Assembly (NCBI GenBank): GCA_038874185.1
Contig: JAVZCX010000003.1
Span: 1 to 43,109 of the forward strand
From: Candidatus Micrarchaeia archaeon
Lineage (GTDB): Archaea > Micrarchaeota > Micrarchaeia > CABMEP01
DNA: 43,109 nucleotides
Direction of reading: 5' to 3'
Numbering within the stretch: position 1 is the stretch's first letter; each line of letters opens with the position of its first letter. The position numbers and the translations under genes were made by a program. Below the pieces are notes generated by a model, which had not been told where the DNA came from, did no database searches, and was given only the letters and a program-made list of their open reading frames with translations. Positions 30,210 through 40,245 of this stretch are shown here, piece by piece.

Positions 30210-30326
30210 ATTTCAAAATATTTTTATATTTCAAAAGATTTTTATATTCTGTTTGCATTTATATTATGTCATGCTTTATATTATGTCATGCTTATACATC
30301 TATATTCAAGTACATCTACATTCAAG
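30210..30326. repeat. Three consecutive short tandem doublets (18-, 17- and 16-bp periods)
   Basis: ATTTCAAAA(T/G)ATTTTTAT x2; TTTATATTATGTCATGC x2; TACATCTA(T/C)ATTCAAG x2. Confidence 0.8.
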
Positions 30327-31539: not shown

Positions 31540-31688
31540 GGGCCCATAGCTCAGCCTGGATAGAGCGGCAGCCTTCTAAGAAACTCTTTTAAGAAAAGAG
31601 TTTCATCAGAGGGTTTTTGATGAAACTTTCTTAAAGGGAAAGTTTCGAAGCAAGCTGAAGGTCGAGGGTTCGAATCCCTCTGGGCCCG
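31540..31688 (+). tRNA. tRNA-Arg(UCU) with 74-nt canonical 37/38 intron (31579-31652)
   Basis: Acceptor GGGCCCA/TGGGCCC, D arm GCTC/GAGC, anticodon TCT 31575-31577, T arm GAGGG-TTCGAAT-CCCTC; BHB with CTTC/GAAG helix and bulges TA^A and CA^A; CCA not encoded. Confidence 0.96.
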
Positions 31689-31722: not shown

Positions 31723-31986
31723 ATGCCTAAGAACGATAAAGAACAGAAAATTTCCCAGATAATATCACTTATTGATCTTATGCTCGAAGACATGAGCGTC
31801 CCAAGAAATGTAAAGAAAGCAATTGAGGATGCAAAAAAGAGATTGACGGAGAAAGGAGACCCGACAATCAGAGCAGGAGCAGCTATTTATTACATTCAAG
31901 AAATAAGCGAAGATATAAACCTTCCTCAGCATGCAAGAACCCAGGTATGGCAGATTCTTTCTGCATTAGAATCTATTTCTAATTAG
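31723..31986 (+). CDS. UPF0147 family protein
   Basis: DMSVPRNVK, EISEDINLPQHARTQVWQILSALE. Confidence 0.92.
   Translation: MPKNDKEQKISQIISLIDLMLEDMSVPRNVKKAIEDAKKRLTEKGDPTIRAGAAIYYIQEISEDINLPQHARTQVWQILSALESISN
31886..31982. repeat. Repeat A copy 1 (97 bp, 3' end of the UPF0147 gene)
   Basis: Matches 33597-33693 with one mismatch (C31957/T33668). Confidence 0.97.
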
Positions 31987-32068
31987 TTTTATTTTCTAAC
32001 TAGATTATTCCTATAATTTATAATTTATAATTTTTTTAATCTTGACCTTATTCTCTCCATCCTTTATT

Positions 32069-33409
32069 CTATTTTTTGATTCCAAATTCCATTGTCTGTA
32101 CTGTTCCTTTTTCACGATAATAAGCTACTGTTATTCTTTCTTCCGCTATTTTTTTGCCTGTTTTTTTCTTTTTTCCTTTATTTTCTTCTTCAATATTCAG
32201 GCTATACTTTGTAAAACTGTCTTCTGGTGCATAAACATAAGGTACACTTGCTGCAGATGCCATTATATTTGCCAGAGATCTTGTGCTTTGCTCATTTCCA
32301 GTTGAACAGGAGATGAGCGCAATAAAGCTGTTTTTATCTTCTTTATCAATCATGCTTCCTATCTTAGACATAATGTCATAGTCGCTGACATCAAAAAGAG
32401 AGTAAGGCTTATCTTCCTTTCCTAATTTTACTCTTGTTGGCTCTCCATGCCCTGCGATAAAAATCCCATTGAAAGAGCCATGTTTCTTGTACATTTTTTC
32501 AATCATTAGCATGAGTTCAACATCACTACTTGCCTCTACTGCGATGGTCTTTCCATATTTGCTTAATGCATCGTTATGCTTTGAGTCGCCGTAGAATGCA
32601 CCGTTGTGGTCAGAATAAGAATAAGCGAATATAAAAATTCTCTCCTTTTTCTTTTCCTTTTTACTATTTTCACTTCCCTCTTTTTCAGTTTCACTGCCCA
32701 TAGTGCTTTTTGCATAGTTATATAGCTGCAAAATGAATCCTGAGGAATGCCTTCCGAAATGTGTTATATTGTATTCTTCTTTTATTGCGGGCACCATTTC
32801 AACAATATTCTTTCTTAATTCTATGAAATCCTTAATTTCTGAATTGGATATCAAGTGAATGACTTCTCCTGCAGCAATTGCTTTCTGTTCAGCATCTTTA
32901 TATTTTTCAGTTAGTTTCTTTACCGCATCCACAGTTTCTTTCTCATTAAAAATCTTCATTATCTCTTTCATTTCCCTCCTATTCTTTCTTATCCCAAGCC
33001 TTCCTATTCTAAAAACAATTTCATCCAACCCACATATACTTTCATAATTGGGAATTATTTTTTTCATCTCTTCAGTTTGGATGTAATGAACAGCTGCATT
33101 AATCTCACTTTTAATTTTATCATCAGAAAGATTTGCAATTCCACTCAATAGCTGTGCTTTAATTTTTGAATCGGTCTCTAATTTGTCAATAGTGTCAATA
33201 ACCTTCAAAAGCAGTTCTTTATCCTTAGTATTCAATAAAATTTTTGTTAGATTTATTTGTGATGAAACCCATCTTTCACTTTTTTTCAGAAATTCCTGTA
33301 TCTTTCTAATTTCATTTTCATTTGCTTTTATGTTTGCTGATTCAAATACTTTCTTTGCTTGTTCTAAATAAATATCTTGTTTTATTGGTTCTATTGCCAG
33401 CTGAGCCAT
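32069..33409 (-). CDS. Helical N-terminus plus caspase-fold (DUF4347/CHAT-like) His-Cys domain, paralogue 1
   Basis: EYNITHFGR, YSYSDHNGAFY, FIAGHG, IALISCSTG. Confidence 0.7.
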   Translation of the reverse strand: MAQLAIEPIKQDIYLEQAKKVFESANIKANENEIRKIQEFLKKSERWVSSQINLTKILLNTKDKELLLKVIDTIDKLETDSKIKAQLLSGIANLSDDKIKSEINAAVHYIQTEEMKKIIPNYESICGLDEIVFRIGRLGIRKNRREMKEIMKIFNEKETVDAVKKLTEKYKDAEQKAIAAGEVIHLISNSEIKDFIELRKNIVEMVPAIKEEYNITHFGRHSSGFILQLYNYAKSTMGSETEKEGSENSKKEKKKERIFIFAYSYSDHNGAFYGDSKHNDALSKYGKTIAVEASSDVELMLMIEKMYKKHGSFNGIFIAGHGEPTRVKLGKEDKPYSLFDVSDYDIMSKIGSMIDKEDKNSFIALISCSTGNEQSTRSLANIMASAASVPYVYAPEDSFTKYSLNIEEENKGKKKKTGKKIAEERITVAYYREKGTVQTMEFGIKK

Positions 33410-33483
33410 AATATTCTTTATTGTTAAGAGTATTTAATCTTTCTTTTTTCTGAACCTAACCGCTAGCTATTTTTCTAAAACAT

Positions 33484-33601
33484 AATCACTAGAAGCGAAC
33501 TTAGACAAGATATAAAAATACATAGCTGCAATAACATAATATTCTTTTGTGACACTGCGTCTTATGCGCGTGTTTTGATGCGTAAGCATCAGTGATTTTA
33601 T
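33484..33601. repeat. Repeat B copy 1 (118 bp, extra copy of the DP1 promoter/leader)
   Basis: Matches 35158-35275 with one mismatch (A33539/G35213). Confidence 0.97.
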
Positions 33602-33693
33602 TACATTCAAGAAATAAGCGAAGATATAAACCTTCCTCAGCATGCAAGAACCCAGGTATGGCAGATTTTTTCTGCATTAGAATCTATTTCTAA
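33597..33693 (+). pseudogene. Repeat A copy 2: start-less 3' fragment of the UPF0147 gene
   Basis: Near-identical to 31886-31982; fused to repeat B through a shared TTTAT. Confidence 0.9.
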
Positions 33694-33701
33694 CTGATTT
33701 T

Positions 33702-35078
33702 TCACTCAGATTTTTCTTTTGATTGATTGGATGGATTTTTTTTAATCAGATCTATGTTATGTATATCATCTACTGTTATTTTTATCCCTTCTTTATCTTT
33801 GTGTATTTCTTTTATTTCCGTTCTTTGGTAATTTTCATTTATGATTTTAGGCTGAACTTGCACTAGTCCACGTATGTAGTTGATAGAGATTTGCTTTTTT
33901 CCTTCGCATTCGACAATTTTGACAGTGTAATCGCTAATAATTGCTGGAGGAGCTATTACTTTTACTCCTGTAAATTTAGCTAGAAAGTTTGCCATTGAAA
34001 GCACTAGTAGATTACCCTTCTTTAGTTTAATTTCTTCTTCCTTTCCACTTTCACAGGCAATTAATATTATGCTCCTTTCTGGATTCTCTTCATTCATTGA
34101 ATCTCCAATATTTTTCATTATGTCCACATCACTTACATTTAGGAGGGATGATAGGGAAAAGTCATCTTCTAGTTTAAGACCCAGTGGGCTTCCATGAGCA
34201 ACTATAAATAAATGATCGATTTTTCCAAATTTTTGACTCGTTTTCTTAATCATTTCTTCTAATTCATAGTCGTGTTTTGCCTCGATGGCTATAACAGTTC
34301 CATGATTCAGAAGTTCATCTATTTGCTTTGAAAGCTTATAGAATGCATTATTGGAATCACTATAAGAATATACATAAACATAGAGAGGAATTTTTTCTTT
34401 TTCCATAGATGAAGAGATAGAAGATAGATGAAGATATTCTAGAAATTTGGCTGAAAATCTTCCGAAATGAGTTATATTATATTCATTTTTAATGGTTTTT
34501 AATATCTCGGGCAGCTTAGTCCTTATTTTATCAAAATCTTCTTCTTTAGAATTATCAATAAGCCAAACGATCTCTTTTATGAGCTCTGGAATCTCTTCTA
34601 TATTTTTTTCTTTTAGAATTGTTCTAATCATTGTTATTGTTTCTTTTTCACTCAATTTGTCGATTATCCTGTAGCTATTTTGAGTATTAGTTACGATTGC
34701 ATACTCAAAAATAGCACCTATGAGAGCATTAGCTGTAACTATTATTCTTTTTTCTGACTGCATGAAATAATCTGTAGCCTCTCCACTTGCAGAAGTTATT
34801 TCTTCTTTAGTACAATTCATCACTACTTCAATTATTTTTGTCAGGAAAATTTTATCCTGGGTTAAATCCTTCATATTTTTAGAAATTGCTATCAAGCAGA
34901 AAAGGTCAGAAAGTAGTTCCAATTCTTTATCTGACTTTGAGGTGTTTAAAAAAGATGAGATGTTAGTATATCTTTCACCAACGCTTGCTTGATTAAGTAT
35001 TTCTTCTTTGACTCCTCCCATCCTTCTCCAACTATCCAATCTCTTATTTTCCTTTTCTTTTTTTATTTCTTTGTACAT
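33702..35078 (-). CDS. Helical N-terminus plus caspase-fold (DUF4347/CHAT-like) His-Cys domain, paralogue 2
   Basis: EYNITHFGR, YSYSDSNNAFY, FIVAHG, IILIACESG; start uncertain (first ATG at 35078). Confidence 0.7.
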   Translation of the reverse strand: MYKEIKKEKENKRLDSWRRMGGVKEEILNQASVGERYTNISSFLNTSKSDKELELLSDLFCLIAISKNMKDLTQDKIFLTKIIEVVMNCTKEEITSASGEATDYFMQSEKRIIVTANALIGAIFEYAIVTNTQNSYRIIDKLSEKETITMIRTILKEKNIEEIPELIKEIVWLIDNSKEEDFDKIRTKLPEILKTIKNEYNITHFGRFSAKFLEYLHLSSISSSMEKEKIPLYVYVYSYSDSNNAFYKLSKQIDELLNHGTVIAIEAKHDYELEEMIKKTSQKFGKIDHLFIVAHGSPLGLKLEDDFSLSSLLNVSDVDIMKNIGDSMNEENPERSIILIACESGKEEEIKLKKGNLLVLSMANFLAKFTGVKVIAPPAIISDYTVKIVECEGKKQISINYIRGLVQVQPKIINENYQRTEIKEIHKDKEGIKITVDDIHNIDLIKKNPSNQSKEKSE

Positions 35079-35157
35079 ATATTTTAGACTTTTTTGGAGT
35101 TTAAAAACATTTCCTTTTAACAAAGATAAAGGTTTTTTCTTTTTTCTATTAGATAAA

Positions 35158-35275
35158 AATCACTAGAAGCGAACTTAGACAAGATATAAAAATACATAGC
35201 TGCAATAACATAGTATTCTTTTGTGACACTGCGTCTTATGCGCGTGTTTTGATGCGTAAGCATCAGTGATTTTAT
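35158..35275 (+). promoter_or_regulatory. Repeat B copy 2: PolD promoter and structured 5' leader
   Basis: TATA-like ATATAAAA near 35184-35191; hairpins at 35225-35268 abutting AGTGA and ATG 35274. Confidence 0.75.
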
Positions 35276-36761
35276 GGATATTCAAGAAATCAATCGCCTA
35301 GTCAGGCAGAAGAACAAGCTTCTGAAGCCTGGTGCGGCAGAGGCATTAAAAGAGCTTAAAGACGAACAAATAATAGAGATAATAGAGAAAATAGCAGCAC
35401 TTCCTTCTCCTTTTATTTCAGAAACAGACATAAGAGAACTGACCAACCAGATCAAAAAGCCAGATTTTGTTGAAGTAAAGCGCTCTTCAGATTTTCATCC
35501 TACTGCAAAGGAATATGGCCATGAATTCAGAATTTACGAAGATCATGATATCACGGGAAAATCAAAGTGCAAGGGAGAGCTTGATGATTTTGTAAAATAT
35601 TTCAATGACAGGTACAGGAAAATAAGGGATCTATTTGTATCTAGAACAAATGTGAAATTTCCATTGATTGATATAGAGAAGTTTGGAGATGTGAAGGTTG
35701 GAGACACAGTGAGGGTTATAGGGATAGTTTCTGCAAAAACAATTACAAAGAACAAGCACATAATGCTTCAGATAGAAGATCCAACTGGCCCATTAGCTGT
35801 TCTTGTCCTTAACAACCAGGATAACAAGCAGGTTTTTGAAAAAAGCAACAGGATAGTTAATGACGAGATTCTGGCATTCGACATTAAGAAAGGAACCAAC
35901 CTCAATATTCTTGCAGATGTTACCTGGCCTGATCTTCCATTCAAAGAAAAGAAAAAGATAGAAAAGGAGATGGCTATTGCATTCATATCTGATATACATG
36001 TAGGAAGCTCTCATTTCATGGCAAAGAATTTTGAGAATATGATCAAATGGCTTAACGGTTCAGGCCCGCATAAAGAATTGGCAGAAAAAGTGGGATACTT
36101 GCTTTTAGGCGGTGATTTAGTAGATGGGATAGGCATCTATCCGAATCAGGACAAAGAGCTTACTATAAAAGATGTTTACGAGCAATATAAAGTTCTCAAT
36201 CAGTTCCTAGAGCTTGTGCCAGACCATATAAAGATAATTGCAATTCCAGGAAATCATGATGCAGTAAGGCATGCAGAGCCTCAGCCCTCTTTGGGAGAAG
36301 ACATGCTTGCAAAAGACGGAAGAACATATTCAGTTGGAAATCCTGCATTCATGAATATTGAAGGATTGAAGGTACAGATGTATCATGGTTATACAATGGA
36401 ATCCTTGGTTCAGGATGTTCAAGGATTGTCACTTGCAAGACCTGAAGAGATTGCAATAGAGCTTTTAAAGACAAGAAGCATGTCTCCAATATTCGATAAG
36501 AGTATGATTGTCCCCGAACATCAGGATTATATGTTCATAGAAGAGATAGACATGTTTCTTACCGGTCACATTCATAAGATAGGATATGGGGAGTACAGGG
36601 GTTGTGTGATAATGAATGGAGGAACATGGATTGACAAGACAACTGCATGGCAGTTAAGAAGAGGTTTCAGCCCAACCCCTGCAATAATGGGAATTTACGA
36701 CATGCATAATGCAAGAGTTTCGCATGTTGATTTCTCAACAAGTGAAGTTGCATTTGAGTGA
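35274..36761 (+). CDS. polD1: DNA polymerase D small (proofreading) subunit DP1
   Basis: OB fold plus Mre11-like motifs SDIHVGS, GDLVDGIGIYPNQ, PGNHD, YHG, GHIH. Confidence 0.97.
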   Translation: MDIQEINRLVRQKNKLLKPGAAEALKELKDEQIIEIIEKIAALPSPFISETDIRELTNQIKKPDFVEVKRSSDFHPTAKEYGHEFRIYEDHDITGKSKCKGELDDFVKYFNDRYRKIRDLFVSRTNVKFPLIDIEKFGDVKVGDTVRVIGIVSAKTITKNKHIMLQIEDPTGPLAVLVLNNQDNKQVFEKSNRIVNDEILAFDIKKGTNLNILADVTWPDLPFKEKKKIEKEMAIAFISDIHVGSSHFMAKNFENMIKWLNGSGPHKELAEKVGYLLLGGDLVDGIGIYPNQDKELTIKDVYEQYKVLNQFLELVPDHIKIIAIPGNHDAVRHAEPQPSLGEDMLAKDGRTYSVGNPAFMNIEGLKVQMYHGYTMESLVQDVQGLSLARPEEIAIELLKTRSMSPIFDKSMIVPEHQDYMFIEEIDMFLTGHIHKIGYGEYRGCVIMNGGTWIDKTTAWQLRRGFSPTPAIMGIYDMHNARVSHVDFSTSEVAFE

Positions 36762-36765
36762 TAAT

Positions 36766-39700
36766 ATGATTAACTCTGCAGACGAATACATGAAGTCGCA
36801 AATTTCAAAGATATACGAGATTGCAACAGAGGCAAGGAAGAAAGGCATAGATCCTTCAGATTCAGTTGAAATAGTGCCTGCTCCAGATCTTGCAGCCAGA
36901 GTGGAGGGAATTGTAGGGCCAAAAGGAATCGCAGAATACATACGTTCATTGCCGCATGACAAATCAAGAACACAGATTGCATTTATGGCAGCTGAGGCAG
37001 TCATAGAAGGAAAGTTCGGAGATTTCGGTGGGAAAGAGAAGCTTATAGAGCAGGCATTAAGAACAGGGACAGCAGTTCTTACAGAAGGAGTTCTGGTTGC
37101 TCCTACTGAAGGAATTTCAAGTGTTAAAATTCATCAGAATCAGGATGGCACAGAGTATCTTGCTGTTTATTATTCAGGTCCAATAAGATCTGCAGGAGGA
37201 ACCGCAGCAGCGCTTAGCGTTCTCTTGGCAGATTTTCTTAGAAGAAAGATTGGCCTTGCAGAATGGAGACCTACAGACACCGCTGTTGAACGATATCTTG
37301 AGGAAATGGAACTTTATGATGCAAGAGCAGCAAGATTGCAATACAAGCCTTCAGATGATGAGTTTAGGCACATAGTGAGAAATTGTCCTGTATGTGTGAC
37401 AGGAGATCCAACAGAAGAGTTTGAAGTGGGTGCATATAGAAATGTGCCAGGGATAGAGACGAACAGGATAAGGGGAGGAATGGCCCTTGTCCTTTGTGAA
37501 GGAATTGCACAGAAGGCAGCAAAGGTTCTTGGCCAGGCAAAGAAGCTTGGAATTGATTGGAGCTGGCTTGAATCAGTTATAAAAGCACCAAAGGCAAAGG
37601 AAGCAAAGGTTACAAAGATTGAGCCAAATCCAAAATACATAGAAGAGGTTGTAGCAGGTAGGCCAGTAATTGCATATCCATCTAGATTTGGAGGATTCAG
37701 GTTAAGATACGGAAGAACAAGGCTTAGCGGGTTTATGGCGAAGGGAATACATCCTGCTACAATGATAATACTTGATTCATTTCCAGCGATAGGAACTCAA
37801 TTCAAGCTTGAAAGACCTGGAAAGGGATGCGTTCTCACTCCTTGCGAGACAATTGAACCATCAGTTGTTAGACTTAAGGATGGTTCAGTTGTTAGGGTGG
37901 AATCCAGAGAGCATGCAGAAAAGCTAAAGGACAATGTACATACAGTTCTTTTCATTGGAGACATTCTTGTTTCATACGGCGATTTCCTTAAATCAAATTC
38001 ACCTCTGCTCCCGGCAGGATATAATGAGGAATGGTGGCTTGAGGAATTGAGAGATGCAATCGAATTGAAACAAGAACTGAAGAATATTTATTCTAATATA
38101 GATCCTTATAAGGTTGATTTTGATACTGCACTAAAGATCTCAAAGGAGACAGGCATTCCTTTGCATCCAAAATTTACGTTCTTCTGGTCTAACATATCGA
38201 ATGATGAAGTTAAGGAATTGATACACTGGCTTTCTTCAGGCGAATGGAAATCAGACTTATTAAATCCTCTGAATCCAAAAGAGCTTAGAGTAGTATACGA
38301 CCCTGCAAAAAGTATCCTTGAAAAACTTCTAGTTCCTCATAGGGTAGAAAGAGATCAGATAATAATAGAAGGAGAAAATGCAAAATCAATATTCATTTCT
38401 TTAGGCTTGCAGCCAGGACAACCAGATAAATCATTAGTAAATTCTCTTATGAAAAAAATAGATGATTACACCTCAAAACTTCAGTCAGACGAAGAAAAAA
38501 GAAGGTCTGTTGATCTAGTTTCAATTCTTTCTGGAATAAAAATCAGAGACAAAGCAGGTACTTGGATAGGGAGCAGAATGGGAAGGCCTGAAAAATCAAG
38601 AGAGCGACATATGAAACCTGCTGTCCATTCTTTGTTTCCAATTGGAAATGCAGGCGGCAAAACTCGCAACATAATTAAAGCATATAAAGATGCAAAGGCA
38701 AGGAAGCTAAAATATGATGTCACAGTAGAAATAGCAAGGATGCGCTGTCCATTCTGTGGCGGTTTGTCATTCTCAAGAAAATGTCAAAGATGCGGAAAGC
38801 AGACAAAGCCTGAAAGAATATGCAGCAAATGCGGCAAACCATCAGCAACAGAATTTCACATCTGCTCTACTGTGCAGTCAAAACCAGGAAAAGAGATAAA
38901 ATCCAAGACAGTTTTCTATGATTCAAGACCTATAAATATAGTTGAGATCGTAGAAGAGGCAGCAGCGAAAACAAAAATACTTCCAGAAGAAGTGAAATGC
39001 GTCAACGGGTTGGTAAGCGAATTGAAGATTCCAGAGCCTTTAGAAAAAGGAATATTAAGAGCAGTCCATGATGTTTCTGTTTTCAAGGATGGAACCTGTA
39101 GGTTTGATGCAACAAACGTTCCAATTACATACTTTTACCCACGCGAAATAGGAACTCCAGTTTCAAAGCTGAAAGAGCTCGGCTATATGAAAGATGCATA
39201 TGGAAATGAATTAAAGAGTGAGGATCAACTTGTTGAGCTTCTTCCGCATGACATGATAATATCTGAGCGCAGTCTTAAATATATGGCAAGGGTTGCAAGA
39301 TTTGTAGATGATGAACTGGTCAAGATCTACGGCCTTCCTCCGTATTATAATTTGAAGGAAGACAGAGACATAATAGGTCATTTGGTTATAGAGCTTTCTC
39401 CGCACACCTCTTGTGGTATTGCCAGCAGAATAATAGGAACAACAAAAGCACACGTATGTTATGCGCATCCATATTTATTTGCAGCAAGTCGTCGAGATGC
39501 GGATGGAGATGAGAATGCAATAATGCTTCTTATGGATGGATTGCTAAACTTTTCAAAGCATTACCTCCCAGTAACAAGAGGAGGACAGATGGATGCACCG
39601 ATTGTTATGATGACCCATATTGATCCTTCAGAGGTTGACGACCAGGTACATGCATTGGAAGTAGTACAGAGATTCCCATCTTCATTTTATGAAGCAAGCT

Positions 39701-40245
39701 GGAGATTTGCACATCCTTCTGAATGCAAGATTGAGATTGTTTCAGATCGATTAGGAAAGGAGAATGAAAAGTATAATTTATGGTTCACCCATCATACTCC
39801 AGATATGAATAACGGTGCACTTACAACTCAATATGTATATCTTAAATCAATGAAAGACAAAATAAGTGCACAATTAGGTTTGGCAAAGAAAATTGCTGCA
39901 GTAGATGCAAGAGATGCTGCCGAGCGTCTTATAATGAGCCACTTTCTTCCAGATCTCTATGGCAATCTGCGTTCCTTTAGCACACAGCAAGTTAGATGTG
40001 TGGATTGCAATATGAAATATAGAAGAGTTCCATTATCAGGAAAATGTACAAAATGCGGAGGCAAGCTTCTATTGACTGTGAATAGAGGCGGAATAGAAAA
40101 GTATCTGAAGATAACTAAGAATTTGATAGATGAATATAATCTTCCAAATTATCTAAGGCAAAGGATCCAGCTTCTTGAAAGAGACATACAATCTATATTC
40201 GAAGATGAAACAAGCAAGCAGTTCAATCTTGCAGAGTTCATGTAG
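36766..40245 (+). CDS. polD2: DNA polymerase D large subunit DP2 (no intein seen)
   Basis: GPIRSAGGT, GGFRLRYGR, RMGRPEK, FKDGTCRFD, PHTS, catalytic DGDE, GNLRSF..Q..RC..C. Confidence 0.98.
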   Translation: MINSADEYMKSQISKIYEIATEARKKGIDPSDSVEIVPAPDLAARVEGIVGPKGIAEYIRSLPHDKSRTQIAFMAAEAVIEGKFGDFGGKEKLIEQALRTGTAVLTEGVLVAPTEGISSVKIHQNQDGTEYLAVYYSGPIRSAGGTAAALSVLLADFLRRKIGLAEWRPTDTAVERYLEEMELYDARAARLQYKPSDDEFRHIVRNCPVCVTGDPTEEFEVGAYRNVPGIETNRIRGGMALVLCEGIAQKAAKVLGQAKKLGIDWSWLESVIKAPKAKEAKVTKIEPNPKYIEEVVAGRPVIAYPSRFGGFRLRYGRTRLSGFMAKGIHPATMIILDSFPAIGTQFKLERPGKGCVLTPCETIEPSVVRLKDGSVVRVESREHAEKLKDNVHTVLFIGDILVSYGDFLKSNSPLLPAGYNEEWWLEELRDAIELKQELKNIYSNIDPYKVDFDTALKISKETGIPLHPKFTFFWSNISNDEVKELIHWLSSGEWKSDLLNPLNPKELRVVYDPAKSILEKLLVPHRVERDQIIIEGENAKSIFISLGLQPGQPDKSLVNSLMKKIDDYTSKLQSDEEKRRSVDLVSILSGIKIRDKAGTWIGSRMGRPEKSRERHMKPAVHSLFPIGNAGGKTRNIIKAYKDAKARKLKYDVTVEIARMRCPFCGGLSFSRKCQRCGKQTKPERICSKCGKPSATEFHICSTVQSKPGKEIKSKTVFYDSRPINIVEIVEEAAAKTKILPEEVKCVNGLVSELKIPEPLEKGILRAVHDVSVFKDGTCRFDATNVPITYFYPREIGTPVSKLKELGYMKDAYGNELKSEDQLVELLPHDMIISERSLKYMARVARFVDDELVKIYGLPPYYNLKEDRDIIGHLVIELSPHTSCGIASRIIGTTKAHVCYAHPYLFAASRRDADGDENAIMLLMDGLLNFSKHYLPVTRGGQMDAPIVMMTHIDPSEVDDQVHALEVVQRFPSSFYEASWRFAHPSECKIEIVSDRLGKENEKYNLWFTHHTPDMNNGALTTQYVYLKSMKDKISAQLGLAKKIAAVDARDAAERLIMSHFLPDLYGNLRSFSTQQVRCVDCNMKYRRVPLSGKCTKCGGKLLLTVNRGGIEKYLKITKNLIDEYNLPNYLRQRIQLLERDIQSIFEDETSKQFNLAEFM

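Follow-up and report, generated by a model that had tools for sequence, protein, structure and literature searches.

The window analysed here is a 43,109-nucleotide stretch of a Candidatus Micrarchaeia archaeon genome (assembly GCA_038874185.1, contig JAVZCX010000003.1, positions 1 to 43,109 of the forward strand; contig C3 of its bin). Between two of its core genes, those for UPF0147 and for the small subunit of DNA polymerase D (DP1), lie two cargo genes of one protein family, gene1 and gene2. Read from the assembled contig alone, the order is UPF0147, gene1, B1, A2, gene2, B2 and DP1, where A2 is a 97-105-bp remnant of the UPF0147 3' end and B1 and B2 are copies of the element that precedes DP1 (Table 1). 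These parts form two head-to-tail units with the same end points (31886-33601 and 33597-35275), and the layout given in a first-pass annotation, with an A of 97 bp, a B of 118 bp and one mismatch within each pair, holds in its coordinates and counts. The explanation we favour, with belief and doubt about evenly balanced, is that of a recent and metastable allele stack, in which a gene2 allele from a nearly identical strain would have been added beside the resident gene1 through a homologous anchor and a microhomology joint, with no integrase involved.

The two copies of A differ at a single position in 97 bp (31957 C, 33668 T). Extending the comparison to 105 bp adds three mismatches, at 31983, 31985 and 31986, all of them within the final sense codon or the stop codon. 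A2 ends in AAC TGA, as do the UPF0147 genes of the congeners G004 and G005, and AAT TAG is found in A1 and in the congeners G001, G003 and G006. A stop-to-stop change beside a synonymous one suggests that this end took shape elsewhere, within a functional UPF0147 gene to which gene2 was linked. A2 itself has no start codon and is directly preceded by an in-frame TGA, and the genome has one full copy of UPF0147. The two copies of B differ at one of 118 bp (33539 A, 35213 G). B1 is 100% identical to the B of G001 and G003, and the DP1 ATG has been lost at the joint; B1 is now directed into the A2 remnant, after which oligo-T runs are found, and B occurs at this locus only in the genome. The joint had been placed at a shared TTTAT with a second homology next to it, and this is confirmed. 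The second microhomology, the 11-mer ATTCAAGAAAT, lies 3 nt past TTTAT in UPF0147 and A2 and 4 nt past it in DP1, and it occurs five times in the window against 0.25 expected, a count that none of 100 shuffles reaches. To the left of the joint no additional homology is present. Three small open reading frames (ORFs) that cross the joint have no exact match in the collection searched, a result that is uninformative either way.

UPF0147, gene1, gene2 and DP1 are all intact, and each cargo gene has its own upstream region. Relative to G001, the insert amounts to 1674 bp and comprises A2, gene2, the 79-bp gene2 upstream region and a second B. It is the sole structural difference from G001 at the slot, within a region (28.2-43.1 kb) where identity to that genome is 97-100% over most 200-bp bins; across B2 and DP1 (35200-35599) the single mismatch to G001 falls at the B2 site, 35213. 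The congeners G001, G003, G004 and G006 each carry UPF0147, one gene1 and DP1, with exactly one A and one B, and their gene1 orthologs, in the same slot, are 98%, 90%, 71% and 91% identical in amino acids, respectively. No second A or B remnant was found in these four gene1-bearing loci. A single arrangement of the G004 type is also present on contig L028, the sole contig matching the B-element pattern among those of the Joint Genome Institute (JGI). The slot is empty in G005, the most divergent congener (UPF0147 77% and DP1 72% identical in amino acids), where some 180 bp, including a B-like element, separate UPF0147 from DP1. For G002 (54% complete) no B match better than E 0.015 was obtained, and its locus is taken as not assembled.

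Among the congeners that have the locus, the state with both gene1 and gene2 is thus confined to the window genome; the comparison of the UPF0147-DP1 interval across relatives, which the first-pass annotation had proposed as a check, yields no relative with a fixed two-gene arrangement. Gene1 is syntenic in four of the five congeners with an assembled locus, and its divergence is about that of the region, like that of DP1 and DP2. The slot, which had been called hypervariable, is therefore variable within the genus (empty, gene1, or gene1 and gene2), not hypervariable.

An alignment of gene1 with gene2 covers 414 positions at 32% identity (E 2e-47), and the interiors of the two units align only as proteins. 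The closest relative of gene2, P0002 (431 aa), is 79% identical and lies on a 1434-bp contig of another assembly, a size that would roughly suit a k=31 contig if A-like and B-like shared sequence flanked the gene on both sides; in a set of 5.8 billion proteins the gene2 matches were gene2 itself and P0002 only. Further relatives were sought in JGI metagenome contigs (351 pattern matches, none a relative), in viral contigs (51 pattern matches, none a relative) and in 400 other genomes of the class, which returned gene1 orthologs only, and a profile search of genome contigs with the subfamily alignment gave just the known congeners and one distant match. A tree of 20 family members places gene2 and P0002 on a stem of 1.61 that falls outside the gene1 clade (99/99) and inside a 100/99 clade made up of gene1, gene2, P0002 and three metagenomic representatives. 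A constraint that unites gene2 and P0002 in one clade with the five gene1 sequences diverging after G004 is rejected, at a cost of 16.4 log-likelihood units (approximately unbiased test, p-AU 0.025). Gene2 is old, not a recently diverged copy of gene1, and it probably came from elsewhere.

Apart from its end, A2 is of the G001-like type, and so is DP1 just after B2, so the donor would have been nearly identical to the recipient outside the slot. Two other proposals were rejected. If gene2 were the native allele of a G004-related lineage present in the bin, A2 should be of that type; it has one difference from A1 in 97 bp, and G004 has about 10. A long donor tract downstream of B2 is discarded in the same manner, as DP1 there is of the G001 type.

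The age of the joint has to be read from A2. The B of G001 and G003 is a perfect (100%) match and that of G006 a 99% match, the neighbouring DNA of G003 and G006 being about 92-95% identical, and in G004, where DP1 is at 81-84%, B still reaches 92%. Because B is conserved across species well above its surroundings, the near-identity of B1 and B2 says little about age, and the coexistence of identical flanks and divergent cargo, presented at first as a paradox, is less paradoxical than stated: part of that signal is a strongly conserved regulatory element. A2 is under no coding constraint and yet differs from A1 at only one of 97 positions, which makes the joint young, about as young as, or younger than, the roughly 1-2% divergence of the region from G001. 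With B conserved, A2 fresh and gene2 old, most of the original paradox disappears.

In the allele-stack explanation, the resident arrangement would have been UPF0147, gene1, B and DP1, common to the sister species, and the donor would have been a nearly identical strain with a very different gene of the same family in the slot, added and not swapped, in what looks like a commonplace accident of recombination. Homologous recombination in B/DP1 would account for one end; at the other, the donor UPF0147 3' region would have been joined illegitimately to the recipient DP1 start at TTTAT, aided by the 11-mer. Several routes could lead to this outcome: a linear donor fragment with a homologous B/DP1 anchor and an illegitimate joint at TTTAT and the 11-mer, an unequal crossover at the same microhomologies between chromosomes bearing different alleles, or a circle with a B/A joint integrated by a crossover in the part of B that lies right of position 45 (of 118). 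A two-step alternative, self-duplication followed by homologous replacement of one copy, would be indistinguishable from these routes; donor, direction (gain or loss) and route are what we infer from the product. A crossover between B1 and B2 would bring back the G001 state, and one between A1 and A2 would leave only gene2. The repeats would allow, as had been anticipated, collapse of the locus to either single gene.

The first of these routes resembles homology-facilitated illegitimate recombination (HFIR), a process put forward to explain the orphan immunity arrays of type VI secretion system (T6SS) clusters in V. cholerae and for the orphan strings of Rhs and contact-dependent inhibition (CDI) loci (PMC5361080; PMC3240628). 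HFIR arrays combine a homologous anchor and an illegitimate end, by which DNA without a homologue in the recipient is integrated, with retention of the old allele, absence of an integrase and polymorphic cargo. The locus in the window has the B2/DP1 anchor on one side and the microhomology joint on the other; unlike HFIR arrays, it retains both genes at full length, with the incoming gene placed downstream of the resident gene, its duplicated parts are the 3' end of a core gene and a promoter region, it lacks an immunity gene, and its host belongs to the DPANN archaea. To our knowledge, HFIR has not been demonstrated in that group. The locus is also akin to a tandem duplication by unequal crossover or replication slippage, with its head-to-tail units, common boundaries and joint of 5 and 11 bases. 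The similarity over whole units that marks a simple tandem duplication is nonetheless missing: at 32% identity in cargo against 99% in flanks, plain self-duplication would need to be supplemented by a second event or to involve a heterologous partner.

Replacement-type variable loci between core genes, such as surface-polysaccharide or mating-type-like dimorphic loci, provide a further comparison. Like them, the slot is fixed between core genes and varies in content, with sharp identity boundaries at the end of a flanking gene and at a conserved regulatory element; unlike them, it is seen in three states, never with the alternative allele alone in the collections searched, and its gene1 evolves at the regional rate. 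A bolder proposal, which we consider rather improbable, is that the UPF0147-DP1 interval might be a natural site of cassette exchange, at which the core-gene end and the DP1 element would serve as portable homology arms and co-occurring lineages would exchange, stack and collapse highly divergent caspase-like genes related to DUF4347, of a kind that serves as polymorphic toxin domains in bacteria, without a recombinase. The two-gene state would then be an intermediate caught in turnover, and the protease repertoire of the symbiont would be under diversifying pressure.

Several observations weigh against the stacking of a donor allele. The postulated donor, a gene2-only haplotype, was not found among six congeners, 400 other genomes of the class, the JGI metagenome or viral contigs; the early suggestion of a foreign allele stands insofar as gene2 is not a recent copy of gene1, but the gene2-alone haplotype that it needs is missing from these collections. 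The preference for gain over loss has parsimony and the freshness of A2 as its only basis. The group used in the approximately unbiased test was picked after inspection of the tree, and gene2 is on a long branch. Finally, the bin (824 kb in 74 contigs, 84.7% complete, 3.1% contamination) is made of contigs that alternate at kilobase scale between G001-like DNA (95-99%) and G004-related DNA (82-88% identical to G001). Contig C3 is one of them: over 12.3-24.5 kb it is 82-83% identical to G001, G003 and G006, three genomes that share 90-96% identity among themselves over 18.6-24.6 kb, and 88-89% identical to G004; from 28.2 kb on, most of it matches G001 at 97-100%, and G003 and G006 at about 93%, the switch in type lying near 24.6-28.2 kb. 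Four other pieces of the bin (L054-L057) show identities to G001 of 95% or 82%, or switch between 86% and 96-98% inside 12 kb. Such a patchwork may reflect either very frequent recombination between lineages, which would fit an allele stack, or chimeric assembly or binning, a real risk given mixed populations in the sample. Because the bin mixes two lineages, any structural variant in it needs read support.

The corresponding rival, unlikely in our estimate and to be taken seriously, is that the two-gene state is an artefact of assembly or binning, a tandem path threaded through A and B from two or more close strains, or from a chromosome and a small circle, that have either gene1 or gene2 in the slot, with the joint stemming from rare chimeric or minority molecules. 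The two-lineage patchwork favours it, with a switch inside the very contig concerned. DNA of the window is present in two hot-spring metagenome runs, in X1 with 0.98 of the sampled words (probably the source) and in X2, another sample of the same study, with 0.91; both genes co-occur in X2, which fits linkage as well as co-occurring strains. Against it, an assembler based on k-mers cannot make the B-to-A joint from single-gene haplotypes, which share only 5 and 11 bases there, so the joint sequence must exist in some reads. Moreover, the contig has no N at the joint, gene1, gene2, B, DP1 and UPF0147 are confined to C3, the bin holds no alternative single-gene contig for the locus, and a microhomology joint is what real illegitimate recombination produces.

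An old tandem duplication in the genus, after which the genes diverged in place, the flanks were kept alike by gene conversion and selection on B, and the relatives lost gene2 through recombination of the B repeats, appears to us clearly improbable. The well-supported subfamily clade (100/99) that unites gene1 and gene2 is in keeping with it, as is the ancestral AAC TGA at the end of A2, expected if the edge of a repeat escapes conversion, and deletion between 118-bp repeats is easy and leaves exactly the G001 state. It would require, however, at least four independent losses instead of one gain, together with continual conversion of the non-coding A2 up to a joint at which homology ends on one side. 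Gene2, furthermore, does not branch with the gene1 of this lineage, the four gene1-bearing congener loci hold no relic of a second A or B, and G001, for all its closeness over most bins, is without the insert. Least credible, and already largely refuted, is a mobile cassette moved by a site-specific recombinase in the manner of an integron or island, with A and B as attachment sites: the unit is cassette-like between direct repeats and the slot is empty in one congener, but none of the 48 ORFs scanned in the 43-kb window belongs to an integrase, transposase or recombinase family, the repeats derive from a core gene and from the DP1 element, single in every relative, and are not dedicated sites, B is restricted to this locus, and the viral contigs searched lack gene2 relatives.

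In the proteins encoded by gene1 and gene2, a helical N-terminal part precedes a C-terminal domain of some 200 amino acids. Their similarity had been described as limited to short motifs; the distant homology is real, but what the two proteins share is a conserved C-terminal domain in its entirety. In this domain, Arg, Asp, Glu, His-Gly, Cys and Ala-Pro positions are invariant across 15 sequences, including H310-G311 and C357 in 473-aa numbering, and gene2 keeps all of them. The placement of His-Gly and Cys after successive strands is one that we take to be the mark of the clan CD dyad. At the Pfam cut-off no family was obtained for gene1 or gene2, including DUF4347 (PF14252), whose cut-off of 24.6 is passed by 3 of 16 more distant family members, at 25.8-27.3 bits. 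A profile built on the 15-sequence alignment recovers 3777 cluster representatives at E <= 0.001, mostly through the C-terminal domain and with varied N-termini.

The AlphaFold model has a mean predicted local distance difference test score (pLDDT) of 70.8, the C-terminal domain being mostly above 80. Foldseek alone gave no match at E <= 0.001; VIA-align matched residues 241-427 to the Tce1 T6SS effector (9qpe_G, Z 10.5), SAVED-CHAT (8tl0_D, Z 10.4), C11 peptidase (Z 9.0), and caspases and legumain (Z about 8). DUF4347, PAAR and YD-shell proteins are among the Atlas neighbours, which serve as leads only. A DUF4347 protein of P. aeruginosa, PA0256, is reported as a putative T6SS toxin (PMC8262886). 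The likeness of the gene1/gene2 family to clan CD and DUF4347 proteins rests on the His-Gly and Cys after successive strands and on the caspase-like fold matches; the differences are the lack of a Pfam match, the helical N-terminal part and the absence of secretion-system or immunity neighbours, no immunity-like ORF being present in either unit among the window ORFs. The cargo proteins are of the caspase-like (DUF4347-like) His-Cys type, and they are read as predicted cytoplasmic caspase-like proteases with a variable recognition part. The start of gene2 is most likely the ATG at 35078, as in its database copy P0001 and in P0002. In another genome of the class (G019, contig C5) two genes of the caspase-like family, L008 and L015, lie about 4.3 kb apart on one contig, with nearly identical C-terminal domains and N-terminal parts of different length, which hints that the family has been duplicated and reshuffled elsewhere too.

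As for B, presumably the promoter or leader of DP1, no Rfam family recognizes it as an RNA gene, and its single sequences fold no better than shuffles (z 0.38 on the plus strand, -0.90 on the minus strand). The element ends in 7-nt inverted termini (AATCACT...AGTGATT) and contains a TATA-like box and a GATGC-GTAA-GCATC hairpin. The B-like element of G005 keeps the TATA-like box, a GC-rich segment and the GATGC/GCATC hairpin, with a changed and shorter loop. B could be a structured leader or an operator.

The locus lies in core-gene surroundings, with a ribosomal-protein operon, SecY, an adenylate-kinase-like gene, a gene for an EMC3/TMCO1-like membrane protein and a cytidylate-kinase-like gene; downstream of the latter follow a tRNA gene with a long intron, UPF0147, the minus-strand cargo genes, DP1 and DP2. 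The 149 nt of the tRNA gene imply an intron of about 75 nt, and the gene is matched by Rfam and has no ARAGORN call. Elsewhere along the window, the adenylate-kinase-like and EMC3-like genes are separated in G001 by some 4.8 kb of additional DNA (G001:C4 16484-21299), at window positions 30225-30232, and the 200 bp around 30200 are the least conserved part of the right-hand block relative to G001. In DP2, at 39497-39502 (near residue 930), G001 and G006 have an in-frame insert of about 1.5 kb; in G001 its first residue is Cys and its terminal His-Asn precedes a Cys, as in an intein. This insert is missing from the window genome, which has Ala at +1, and from G003. Identity to G001 falls to 90-95% over the 1 kb upstream of the insert site.

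Table 1. Features of the UPF0147-DP1 interval and its neighbours (window coordinates)
Feature	Position	Strand	Basis and remarks
tRNA gene with long intron, upstream neighbour of UPF0147	31540..31688	+	Rfam tRNA, 51.4 bits, model positions 1-71 over 149 nt
UPF0147, intact, 87 aa	31723..31986	+	Pfam PF03685, E 1.6e-25; last 97-105 bp are repeat A1
Repeat A1	31886..31990	+	UPF0147 3' end; 97-bp core 31886-31982
11-mer ATTCAAGAAAT, second microhomology	33605..33615	+	also at 31894-31904 (UPF0147) and 35280-35290 (DP1)
gene1, resident cargo, 446 aa	32069..33409	-	helical N-terminal part and caspase-like His-Cys C-terminal domain; orthologs, family alignment
Repeat B1, copy of the DP1 upstream element	33484..33601	+	118 bp; followed by A2 instead of the DP1 start codon
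B1/A2 joint, microhomology TTTAT	33597..33601	+	5-bp overlap of B1 and A2
Repeat A2, promoterless and startless UPF0147 3' remnant	33597..33701	+	32 codons and stop; 97-bp core 33597-33693
gene2, extra divergent cargo of the gene1 family, 458 aa	33702..35078	-	start ATG at 35078; open frame reaches TTG at 35123
Repeat B2, DP1 upstream element in its normal place	35158..35275	+	abuts the DP1 ATG
DP1, DNA polymerase D small subunit	35274..36761	+	Pfam Metallophos
DP2, downstream of DP1	36709-40245		PolC_DP2 domains

The locus draws attention to a large, unnamed caspase-like family as variable cargo. Without confirmation from reads that the two-gene state is real, the case would be an ordinary one. 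If reads do confirm it, the locus would be a clean natural example, in a DPANN archaeon, of gene gain through a homologous anchor and a microhomology joint, in which the intermediate is still visible, with both alleles intact and flanked by short repeats able to collapse it to either. More generally, the shuffling of accessory genes in these reduced genomes would then be the work of recombination between strains and not of mobile elements.

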